From a virus (Duplodnaviria; Heunggongvirae; Uroviricota; Caudoviricetes): a stretch of DNA of 46,931 bases. How positions within the stretch are numbered: position 1 is the first letter of the stretch; each line of letters begins with the position of its first letter. Location of the stretch: the IMG/VR virus record IMGVR_UViG_2522572023_000008. One strand, given 5' to 3'. This document shows, piece after piece, positions 27,001 through 30,000 of this stretch. The position numbers are program-made.

Positions 27001-30000
27001 GTCTGTCATGAAGGGCACAAAATAAACGCCCTCACTCTCCCTGTTTTTATACCCGCCGTACACGGTGTCGTACTGGGTAGCGTATGTATTTTTCCAGTAA
27101 TACGTCGTGTCACCACAAATCCACGGCACATCTGCAGCACTGCCACCATGGCACTGCGCGTTAAACACGGAGAGGTCAGCACGAAACTGTGTCAGCATGG
27201 CTGTAAACAGCGCAGGTTGCTGTGCGTGGGTGGCGGCGCTCATGTCAAACTCTCCCTGCATCCAGCACACCGCCAGCAACACATTTTTCGGGTTCTTCTG
27301 TAATGCAGCTTTAGTGCGCGCAATCAGGTCCTGATATAACGGTTTACCCACACCCCAGCGTGCCGAATCCTGGCTGGCCCCCGTGTCCGCACTGAATGTC
27401 CCCTCCGCGCCCTGGGTGAATGCCGAACCACCACGACAGCATGGTACCAGCAGGATCCCCGCGTTATTCGGGATATACGGGAGCAGTTTTTTGGCAATAT
27501 GTAAGCCCTGGCCGACACAGCCGTACTGCCCTTTGCTCAGGTCTGCCTTCGGATGATTCAGCGTACTCATATCCTGCACATCATGCAGGCAGTGGTCGGC
27601 CGGAATAATATCGTTATATCTGCAGGCAGCCCCACCCGGCGTCACTGTACTGCGGCGCGCCAGCTGTTTAATGCGCGGATCCGGAGCATCGTATGAATCC
27701 GGCAGCGGAAGCCCTTCACCGTAAGCCATGGCATTGGACTGCCCGGCCAGTACGATGACGTAGTACCAATCCGGCTCAGATGAAGGGCCGACCTGTGGCT
27801 CTCCTTCAATAGCCACCGCCTGCATCAGTGTGTACGGCGTAATGGCAACCGGTCCGCCGTATGGCTGCCAGCCCTCTTTCAGTTTGTGTGTCAGCTTTTC
27901 CGCAAGGTCTGACGGCGACGCCGCCCTGACAACATCATAATGTTTAAATGTCATTATTCCTCCCGGCCGGGATAGTGTATTAAATCAGATATGGAGTGGG
28001 CTGTAGTCCGGAAGCCTGAATGACACACGGGGACTACAGCCCAAGAAATGAAAAAAGGCCACGCAGTTGCGCAGCCTGATAAACCCTGGTTAAAATCCAC
28101 ACGATAACAACACAACAATATCAGTATCTCATGCTATTGCCCGAACCCATTCGGGCATTTTTTACCCATAAAAAATGCCCCTCCGGAGAGGGGCATGTTT
28201 GCATGCACATTCTTTTTCTTGCATGGTGCCGGGTGCCTCCCGGTGAATTCAGTATCAGCACCTGAATCCGCGATTATCACATATACCTGCTTGCTGATTG
28301 CCCCTCCGCACAGGGGGATTCACCATGCAGTAGTATTTTTAATAAACAGTAAACAAAAAAATCAAGCATTATGCAGGCTGTTTCTTTTTATCACCGGCCA
28401 CAGCAATACCACAATGCCGCAGACCAGCACCCCATCCGCCAGCACCGACATGATTCTGCTGGTGAAATCCACCATCACCACCAGAAACAGCAGGAGTGCA
28501 GCCACAGCCAGGCGCAGTTTTACCGTCACTGGTGATTCTCCAGACGAAGACCCAGAACACCGGCAATCTCTTCCAGCACCTTGCGCTCTTCCGGCTCAAT
28601 TTCGCCGTCTGCCTCCGCAATGGCCACCGCCACATCCAGCACATCTTCCGCTTCACGCGTATCGTGTTTCACATCCTCAATCTCACGTAACGCCGCACGA
28701 CGACCAATTTTAAAGTTCGTATCCAGCTGACCGATAATGGTTGCGCTAATCGCATTAATTTCCGAGGTAAACGCAGACAACGCAGGCTGATTACGTAAGA
28801 CCTGTTCGATCTTCGCTTTCTCGGATGCCTCGCATTCACCATCTGCATAGGCCACCAGGTATGCAGCGTTAATCACCGCCTGTGCCAGATCGCGTTTCTC
28901 AAACTTTTTAATTTCCGCTGCCGCTCTGCGGGTTTTCTTTTTGAAGATTCCAAACATCGTGACGTTCCTTTGGGTGGGTGAGCCAACGCCCGGGAGCGAT
29001 CTGCCCACAGAGAAAGTCACACTGACCACTCCGTAAGCTCACCCCCGAAAGGCTCTGTGGTTGATATGCGCCGGGCGTGGCGCAGATACAAAAAAGGCCC
29101 GCCGAAGCGAGCCTGGAAAATAAGTGTGGCGCGTTGTACTGGAGTCGAACCAGTGACCGATTGCTTAGAAGGCAATTGCTCTGTCCGGCTGAGCTAACAA
29201 CGCAGAATACCGATAATGGACCGCCATCGGGGACCCGGCCCCGCACCAACAACCCTGTTATGGTGTCGTCTGCTCTTCCTGATAAGCTAATGGCGGTATG
29301 TGATGGTGGCCCTTGCTGGATTTGAACCAGCGACCTGGCGATTATGAGTCGCTCGCTCTCACCACTGAGCTAAAGGGCCGGGCCAAAAAATAATAATCAG
29401 ATGAAAATCAATAATCAAGCCCTTGCCTGGATACATATCTGTCCGGCGGGAAGCCATAATAGCGGTGAAATACAGAAATAAAGTAGGACCAGCTTGAATA
29501 ACCGCATTTTTCTGCTACAGCCTGTCCATATCCATGCCGGGAACATAACATATTTACAGCAACACGCATCCGCTCTTCCAGCAACAAGCGACTGAACATG
29601 CCCCCTTCATTTTTCAGTTTTGTCTTTAACAAACTCTCACTCATATGCAACTGTAGAGCAATCGCACCAAGCGTCCAGCTTGCTGATATATCTGTCTGAA
29701 TTATCGCCCTGACTTTGGCACTTATGCTGGATAAACATCCACTTAAAAACAATGACATCCGTTCATCTGTTTCAAACAGAGACAGGCAGGCCATCATAAG
29801 AAACATATCCGTGACCTCTCCGGAAAATCCCTGGCTGGTAATTAAAGCCGCAGCCAACGCAGGATTGTTGGGTTCCAGCAACAGGTAAAGCGGAATGTCA
29901 GTCAGACGAGTCCTCGTCAGCTTATGCTGACTTTCCAGATATTGACTTACGACGGATTCGCTTATATCGACAATTTTAACTTTGCCATAATGCATAAGGA

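Follow-up and report, generated by a model that had tools for sequence, protein, structure and literature searches.

The closest described relatives of the locus analysed here are EcOnc01a and EcOnc01b, two small RNAs (sRNAs) encoded in the prophages Sp10 and Sp17 of Escherichia coli O157:H7 Sakai, which were renamed AgvB1 and AgvB2 and were the most abundant new Hfq-bound RNAs in this strain (Tree et al., 2014, PMC4104026). Crosslinking to Hfq was shown for AgvB, its primary 5' ends were mapped by tobacco acid pyrophosphatase (TAP)-dependent RNA ligase-mediated rapid amplification of cDNA ends (RLM-RACE), and a band of 60 nt was seen in Northern blots (PMC4104026). The same study found that AgvB relieves the repression of dppA by GcvB, with direct contact backed by compensatory mutations with GcvB and dppA, and that an agvB double deletion leads to a fitness defect in bovine terminal rectal mucus (PMC4104026). 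AgvB is an RNA decoy, which reprogrammes the host GcvB regulon and aids growth of enterohaemorrhagic E. coli (EHEC) in bovine rectal mucus. The kinetics of its Hfq-dependent annealing were dissected in a later study, in which it is called an independently transcribed sponge, and an RNA of this kind would be expected to be short (51-60 nt), with its own promoter and a Rho-independent terminator. Tree et al. also described a "convergent sRNA pair" flanked by the PR' moron genes on one side and by a conserved downstream open reading frame (ORF) on the other, a layout that applies to the Sakai prophages Sp3, 4, 5, 9, 10, 11, 15 and 17 (PMC4104026). In a preprint of 2026, the Pas sRNAs beside a sialate esterase gene are said to have AgvB, AsxR and STnc100 as frequent neighbours, and STnc100 is linked to PasD. 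Here, we analysed a stretch of 46,931 nucleotides (hereafter the window) from IMG/VR record IMGVR_UViG_2522572023_000008, a virus of the Caudoviricetes, in which a convergent pair of AgvB and an STnc100-family sRNA is predicted upstream of nanS-p, a sialate O-acetylesterase gene, and is followed by a hairpin in the nanS-p leader. In the window, nanS-p is the conserved downstream ORF of the published pair.

An Rfam scan of the window returned a match to RF02702 at 28102-28163 on the plus strand, with 96.5 bits against a gathering score of 56, which covers positions 1-62 of the 62-position model and equals the consensus at all of them. The 62-nt sequence is identical to agvB in Sakai Sp10 and Sp17, where the AgvB 5' end lies at CGAU, equivalent to position 28102 (PMC4104026). 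An earlier note on this DNA, made from the sequence alone, had reported a plus-strand terminator back to back with a minus-strand terminator and had deduced that a small plus-strand transcript ends here. Both terminators were recovered by a terminator scan, at 28138-28163 and 28196-28169, respectively, and correspond to the 3' ends of AgvB and of the STnc100-family RNA. As the transcript is AgvB, judging by the Rfam match and the identity with Sakai, the deduction was correct, but the RNA had already been published. We are therefore highly confident, from the sequence, that the plus-strand terminator represents the 3' end of the published sRNA AgvB, convergent with an STnc100-family sRNA at a prophage moron site. 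The features of the pair are as follows:

28102-28163, plus strand: AgvB anti-sRNA, 62 nt (Rfam RF02702)
28067-28096, plus strand: putative AgvB promoter, -35 TTGCGC (28067-28072), N18, -10 TAAAAT (28091-28096)
28138-28163, plus strand: intrinsic terminator of AgvB, stem 28138-28157 (8 bp, 5 GC), U6 28158-28163 (terminator scan)
28164-28354, minus (late) strand: STnc100-family sRNA (Rfam RF02076)
28196-28170, minus strand: terminator of the STnc100-family sRNA, stem 28196-28175 (9 bp, 6 GC), T-run 28174-28170 (terminator scan)
28077-28051, minus strand: a further intrinsic terminator on the late strand, the second, with its stem at 28077-28056 and its U-tract reaching 28051 (terminator scan)

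The convergent AgvB/STnc100 pair is already described biology and its recovery from raw sequence is a rediscovery, the core of which brings no new biology. Minor additions are the location of the AgvB -35 inside a terminator, a leader hairpin common to Stx1, Stx2 and non-Stx prophages, and the fact that agvB is unannotated in 652 genomes.

The genomic setting agrees with that of the published genes. Positions 27700-28700 of the window are 100% identical to a prophage of E. coli O145:H28 RM13516, for which RefSeq gives the late-strand order tRNA-Ile, tRNA-Arg, TerB-family gene, DUF3927 gene, SASA esterase (nanS-p), holin and lysozyme. The STnc100-family sRNA and, on the opposite strand, AgvB fall between the DUF3927 gene and nanS-p, the first late gene downstream of the sRNA element, in a 407-bp intergenic gap without RefSeq annotation in RM13516. 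This gap is identical to that of Sakai Sp17 and ~99% identical to that of Sp10, the loci defining agvB1/agvB2. Compared with AgvB of Sakai (EcOnc01a/b, RF02702), the sequence, promoter block, terminator and context are identical and we regard it as the same gene; the only difference is the host, with an O145:H28 prophage here, in which the RNA is predicted.

The partner on the late strand was assigned to RF02076 with 143.9 bits against a gathering score of 47 (28354-28164, minus strand; model positions 1-206), and the matches to RF02702 and RF02076 abut exactly at the point where the two RNAs meet tail to tail. Its assignment to the STnc100 family is based on the score above gathering and on the terminal intrinsic terminator at 28196-28170. 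Members of this family are likewise placed in Stx1a, Stx2a and further prophage loci, and the combination of STnc100 with an anti-sRNA is found again in this place downstream of stx1B and of stx2B. The match is full-length and, as in the STnc100 (RF02076)/PasD/EcOnc06/EcOnc27 family, the predicted RNA lies on the late strand, upstream of the esterase gene and convergent with an anti-sRNA. A discrete transcript of ~180-200 nt would be expected of such an RNA. Sakai EcOnc06, for which a Northern band of ~177 nt was reported, is probably its homologue, provided that the offset taken from agvB1 is valid at Sp17. If this 137-nt offset applies here, the Hfq peak of EcOnc06 would fall at 28202-28264, which is the likelier placement, albeit unproven; the supplementary-table coordinates from 2014 refer to NC_002695.1 and the comparison was made on version.2. 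With zero offset, the peak would fall antisense to AgvB, and this placement was set aside as less likely. On the plus strand, a 172-aa ORF (28195-28713) runs antisense to the DUF3927 and TerB genes as well as to the STnc100-like RNA. The corresponding Sakai ORFs, ECs_1960 and ECs_3499, are annotated as hypothetical proteins and are probably spurious calls over the sRNA locus.

The sequence TTGCGC-N18-TAAAAT is supported as the AgvB promoter by its position, with the start at C28102 lying 6 nt downstream of the -10, and by its conservation. Every copy of the conserved 3' module was collected from 210 related loci. The 14 distinct anti-sRNA variants obtained differ in their 5' seeds, which fall into AgvB-type, AsxR-type and two other types, but all of them are preceded by the promoter block GCAGTTGCGCAGCCT..CTGGTTAAAAT in nearly invariant form. 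AgvB of the window has a terminator and a putative -35/-10 block upstream of the published 5' end, and its start would be the one mapped on the identical Sakai sequence. The -35 is embedded in the hairpin of the late-strand terminator at 28077-28051. AsxR (EcOnc02; RF02703) and EcOnc03-type anti-sRNAs, of the Stx2 phage Sp5 and of Sp9, share with AgvB the promoter and terminator, a 3' module of ~42 nt and a convergent location past the moron genes, but differ in their 5' seeds, with AsxR targeting FnrS. The window carries the AgvB seed AACAACACAACA, and its match to AsxR is sub-threshold (43 bits).

This CA-rich seed (28106-28117, AgvB nt 5-16) is a perfect 12-nt complement of GcvB R1 nt 71-82. 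The predicted seed duplex between AgvB and GcvB, using gcvB of MG1655, has an energy of -19.9 kcal/mol compared with -14.2 +/- 2.9 kcal/mol for composition-matched shuffles, 16 of 500 of which were as good. In AgvB, the variable 5' region contains the GcvB R1 target consensus (CACAACA), and pairing with R1 is possible as judged from the sequence. AgvB together with its promoter was found at >=99% identity in 621 records. Among 5,426 complete E. coli genomes, 652 gave a match, in a median of three places each.

Based on the published work and the features listed above, we propose that the module is a convergent sRNA pair of lambdoid/Stx-type prophages, which occupies the moron site between the PR'-proximal cargo, here tRNAs, a TerB-like gene and a DUF3927 gene, and nanS-p. 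The sigma-70 promoter at 28067-28096 would give rise to AgvB (28102-28163, plus strand), which would end at the plus-strand terminator. AgvB would bind Hfq and its 5' CA-rich region would mimic a GcvB target site, so that it could pair with the R1 seed of GcvB, and this pairing would relieve the repression of GcvB targets such as dppA. Sponging of GcvB was demonstrated experimentally for the identical Sakai genes and would be expected to take place here as well. The STnc100-family sRNA, its presumed partner, would end at the opposing late-strand terminator. The two late-strand terminators should shield nanS-p and the lysis genes in lysogens, and an antiterminated polymerase would read through them. 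A few observations weigh against this assignment. The AgvB -35 is weak and, because it matches the consensus at only 3 of 6 positions, the promoter was missed by the consensus scan; RefSeq has no annotation at AgvB in any of the 652 carrier genomes; and activity of AgvB in O145:H28 RM13516 is presumed from its identity with the Sakai gene.

The two terminators of the pair stand tail to tail with a spacing of 6 nt, and the predicted fold of the AgvB terminator has a minimum free energy of -13.7 kcal/mol (z = -3.2). Terminator-like sites are frequent in this part of the window, with eight in a 3-kb region versus 2.6 +/- 1.5 in shuffles. The earlier note had overlooked the minus-strand terminator at 28077-28051, which lies between the sRNA pair and the nanS-p leader, folds with -14.9 kcal/mol (z = -4.1), was kept in every leader type examined, and has 98% of its cells paired in the alignment described below. 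We also observed a perfect 12-nt inverted repeat, I8 (GGGCATTTTTTA / TAAAAAATGCCC, 28153-28164/28169-28180), with 4 nt between its arms. One arm is made up of the 3' arm and U-tract of the AgvB terminator and the other is the equivalent stretch of the STnc100 terminator, so that read-through of either one could give an RNA with an alternative hairpin of 12 bp across both tails.

The earlier note had pointed, further upstream, to an extended -10-like string and to an inverted repeat located in the nanS-p leader, which can be read as a plus-strand transcript that starts near 27986 and includes the repeat. The features concerned are:

26104-27954, minus strand: nanS-p, SASA-family sialate O-acetylesterase with a DUF1737 N-terminus (ORF, translation, RefSeq on the identical RM13516 sequence)
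27976-27985, plus strand: tgtattaaat, extended -10-like string, rejected as a promoter
27997-28009 / 28031-28043, minus strand (presumed): perfect hairpin of 13 bp in the 5' leader of nanS-p, loop of 21 nt (fold and repeat search)

On this reading, a ~180-nt plus-strand RNA starting from 27976-85 and including the hairpin would act as a cis-antisense regulator of the nanS-p leader. The string does exist on the plus strand, such an RNA would be complementary to the nanS-p leader, and the scan detected no plus-strand terminator between 27985 and 28138, so that a transcript starting at the string could reach the AgvB terminator. However, a sigma-70 scan gave no plus-strand promoter-like site at 27976-85 and no -35. 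When the TG is read as TGn, the hexamer is ATTAAA, which lacks the key A at position 2 and the T at position 6, and tgtattaaat is not conserved in homologous type-B nanS-p leaders. A sigma-70 promoter at this place would be expected to have both key bases, a -35 or a correctly spaced TG, and conservation. In addition, the mapped primary 5' end and the 60-nt Northern band obtained on the identical Sakai sequence set the start at CGAU (28102), 116 nt downstream of the string. The inverted repeat lies 59 nt upstream of this start and therefore lies outside the AgvB RNA, and the hairpin is found in many leaders that do not carry the anti-sRNA module. We consider a ~180-nt RNA starting at the string extremely improbable. 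AgvB is a trans-acting GcvB sponge, and nothing was found in support of an antisense role at nanS-p: the two are transcribed in divergent directions, and AgvB has no overlap with the leader past the 28077-28051 terminator. A minus-strand promoter at 27976-85 was also evaluated and rejected; the extended -10-like TGaTTTAAT has no A at position 2 and type-B leaders differ here.

An antisense relationship is present in the sequence at a different place. Between the minus-strand terminators, the late-strand segment 28163-28050 (minus strand) is antisense to the whole of AgvB and therefore carries a perfect copy of the 12-nt GcvB R1 core: it contains UGUUGUGUUGUU, the sequence of GcvB R1 nt 71-82, with a terminator hairpin and a U-tract behind it. 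The segment also gave weak, sub-threshold Rfam matches to GcvB (20.7 bits, E = 0.067) and to OmrA-B. One might speculate that a late-strand antisense RNA, made by read-through or by Q-antiterminated transcription, destroys or titrates AgvB upon induction, or that it mimics GcvB and binds Hfq; if true, either as an AgvB antidote or as a GcvB mimic, it would tie the decision for lysis to a reversed sponge effect. Alternatively, the leader hairpin could be a functional determinant of the stability of the nanS-p/lysis-cassette mRNA. Judged jointly, we regard it as unlikely that one or the other of these two readings applies, and the leader hairpin and the GcvB R1 core copy ahead of a terminator are best seen as small leads.

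The hairpin itself is a well-defined structure. The arms of the 12-bp inverted repeat with a 21-nt loop reported in the earlier note (GGGCTGTAGTCC / GGACTACAGCCC) lie exactly where it had placed them, and the pairing extends to 13 bp. The only other perfect inverted repeats of >=12 nt listed in the 47-kb window are I8 and I12, a palindrome with overlapping arms (44406-44423). The predicted fold has an energy of -28.0 kcal/mol on the minus strand (z = -6.2) and of -25.2 kcal/mol on the plus strand (z = -4.8), and none of 200 shuffles was as stable. On the late strand, the hairpin is separated by 7 nt from the U-tract of the preceding terminator (28077-28051) and by 42 nt from the nanS-p ATG downstream. 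Copies of the repeat arms with up to two mismatches were found six times in the window versus 2.7 expected, with the two arms being the only exact copies, and the repeat is not a dispersed family.

The conservation of the hairpin in homologous prophages, a check suggested in the earlier note, was assessed in nanS-p leaders sampled in three ways: anchored on the protein in viral contigs, by a flank-only pattern, and from annotated phages. Since the pattern was anchored on the flanks only, the sample is unbiased toward the hairpin. The hairpin is modestly conserved in homologous prophages: homologous hairpins are present downstream of stx1B, of stx2B (Sp5/VT2-Sakai, Stx2d phages) and of non-stx cargo, including Stx1a, Stx2a and Stx2d leaders, with loops of 11 to ~26 nt and of differing sequence. 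Of the distinct leaders with the hairpin, 40 have no anti-sRNA module within 450 nt and 30 do have one; the hairpin therefore travels with nanS-p and not with AgvB. In an alignment of 23 sequences, in which the helices of the terminator and the hairpin were scored jointly (23 pairs), 90.8% of the cells are paired compared with 28-42% when the partners were slid by 1-3 columns. Five hairpin pairs are changed on both sides, versus 1.0 +/- 0.9 in shuffles, and RNAalifold recovered both the terminator and the hairpin unguided. In our search of the literature on nanS-p transcription and on the stx-flanking region, we found no description of the hairpin or of the leader terminator.

Several results limit the case for the hairpin. 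The RNAalifold covariation term is small (-0.45 kcal/mol), and the doubly changed pairs come mainly, as does most of the variation, from three divergent sequences (leaders L077, L120 and L089 of our sample). The commonest type-B variants contain one or two mid-stem U.U mismatches, and 41 of 74 protein-anchored nanS-p loci have no hairpin of this kind but a type-C leader instead. The tally of G.U versus A.C mismatches is ~9 events for the late strand versus ~5 and leaves the strand undecided; assigning the hairpin to a strand on this basis was dropped. In the Sp10 copy (L191; L082 ~1760-1790), a 4-nt duplication, CAGC, in the 3' arm and a loop substitution reduce the perfect stem to 11 bp. In this place, ~60-85 nt upstream of the ATG of nanS-p, type-C leaders (L006, L007, L011 and others) have a non-homologous hairpin of ~11 bp, GACCUGCCACUGGCAGAUGGUC, which comes directly after a conserved terminator consisting of CTGCGCAttGCGCAG and T8. 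No type-C leader was seen among the loci with the anti-sRNA 3' module, and an Rfam scan of two type-C loci (L007 and L011) found no matches to AgvB or AsxR.

The hairpin belongs to neither sRNA. Within the late mRNA it might be a structural, 5'-protective or processing element, a role we put forward tentatively and consider rather less than probable. In the interval from the second terminator to the hairpin, no plausible hexamers were found for a nanS-p promoter, which was therefore rejected. Stem-loops that stabilise the 5' end or serve in the processing of bacterial mRNAs are known, for example the hairpin in the 5' untranslated region of ompA. Similar to these, the nanS-p leader hairpin is stable, has no U-tract and stands at the start of an mRNA leader, and its variable loop sequence suggests that the stem is what matters. 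Unlike these, the hairpin would lie inside a long read-through late transcript unless this is processed, and a position at an mRNA terminus is hypothetical. We further considered the possibility that the inverted repeat is a feature of the DNA, either a recombination joint of mosaic modules or a relic palindrome, and has no function as RNA. Mosaic joints are indeed seen at the edges of the hairpin: in Stx1a leaders, the type-A hairpin is joined to a terminator flank of type B, and in leader L066 it is joined to a ribosome-binding site and start of type B. The conservation of the hairpin is mostly at the level of sequence, with mid-stem U.U mismatches being tolerated and the 3'-arm duplication present in Sp10, and about half of the nanS-p leaders lack it. 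On the other hand, the three divergent leaders keep the hairpin through the two-sided changes at five pairs, a 1-nt insertion restores pairing in L088, and type-C leaders have a non-homologous hairpin in the corresponding position. A feature confined to the DNA level is the main alternative and, like the role in the late mRNA, rather less than probable. As an alternative, the earlier note had raised RNase III processing of the late transcript, here taken as Q-antiterminated, with the repeat as the site. A hairpin this stable on the late strand, located in the leader of the first late ORF and kept in homologous prophages, would fit such a site. However, classical RNase III substrates comprise about two helical turns, and the stem, with 13 bp at best and interrupted by U.U in most homologues, is shorter than is typical, which also counts against the processing role named above. 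RNase III cleavage data for the site were not found in the literature searched. Cleavage by RNase III is very unlikely, and a structural, 5'-protective or processing element in the late mRNA is kept as the tentative interpretation.

Several other features of the same prophage were recorded. The first prophage tRNA (29304-29379, minus strand) is called Met (CAT) by ARAGORN and tRNA-Ile (ileZ type) in RefSeq and in the Sakai annotation. It is followed by tRNA-Arg(TCT) at 29127-29203 (minus strand) and by a strong late-strand terminator-like hairpin at 29114-29095, and a weak match to STnc100 (20.1 bits, E = 0.11) extends over 29084-29188. Matches at gathering level were obtained for sok, the hok/sok antitoxin RNA (33675-33849, minus strand; 113.5 bits), and for DicF (41412-41463, plus strand; 76.7 bits). 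According to the Table S2 coordinates, the Sp10 segment between the endopeptidase gene and the next gene, ~5 kb downstream, should hold the HnrS/EcOnc11 locus; this intergenic segment gave no BLAST match in the window. The replacement segment at 23042-24008 contains an AT-rich inverted repeat (23614-23684) and a promoter-like site on the plus strand (23651-23680), behind which lies a terminator-like one (23768-23784), signals which could belong to another small plus-strand transcript. Near the end of the window, a tRNA-Ser(CGA) gene is located at 45951-46040 on the minus strand, which may be the integration site of the prophage.

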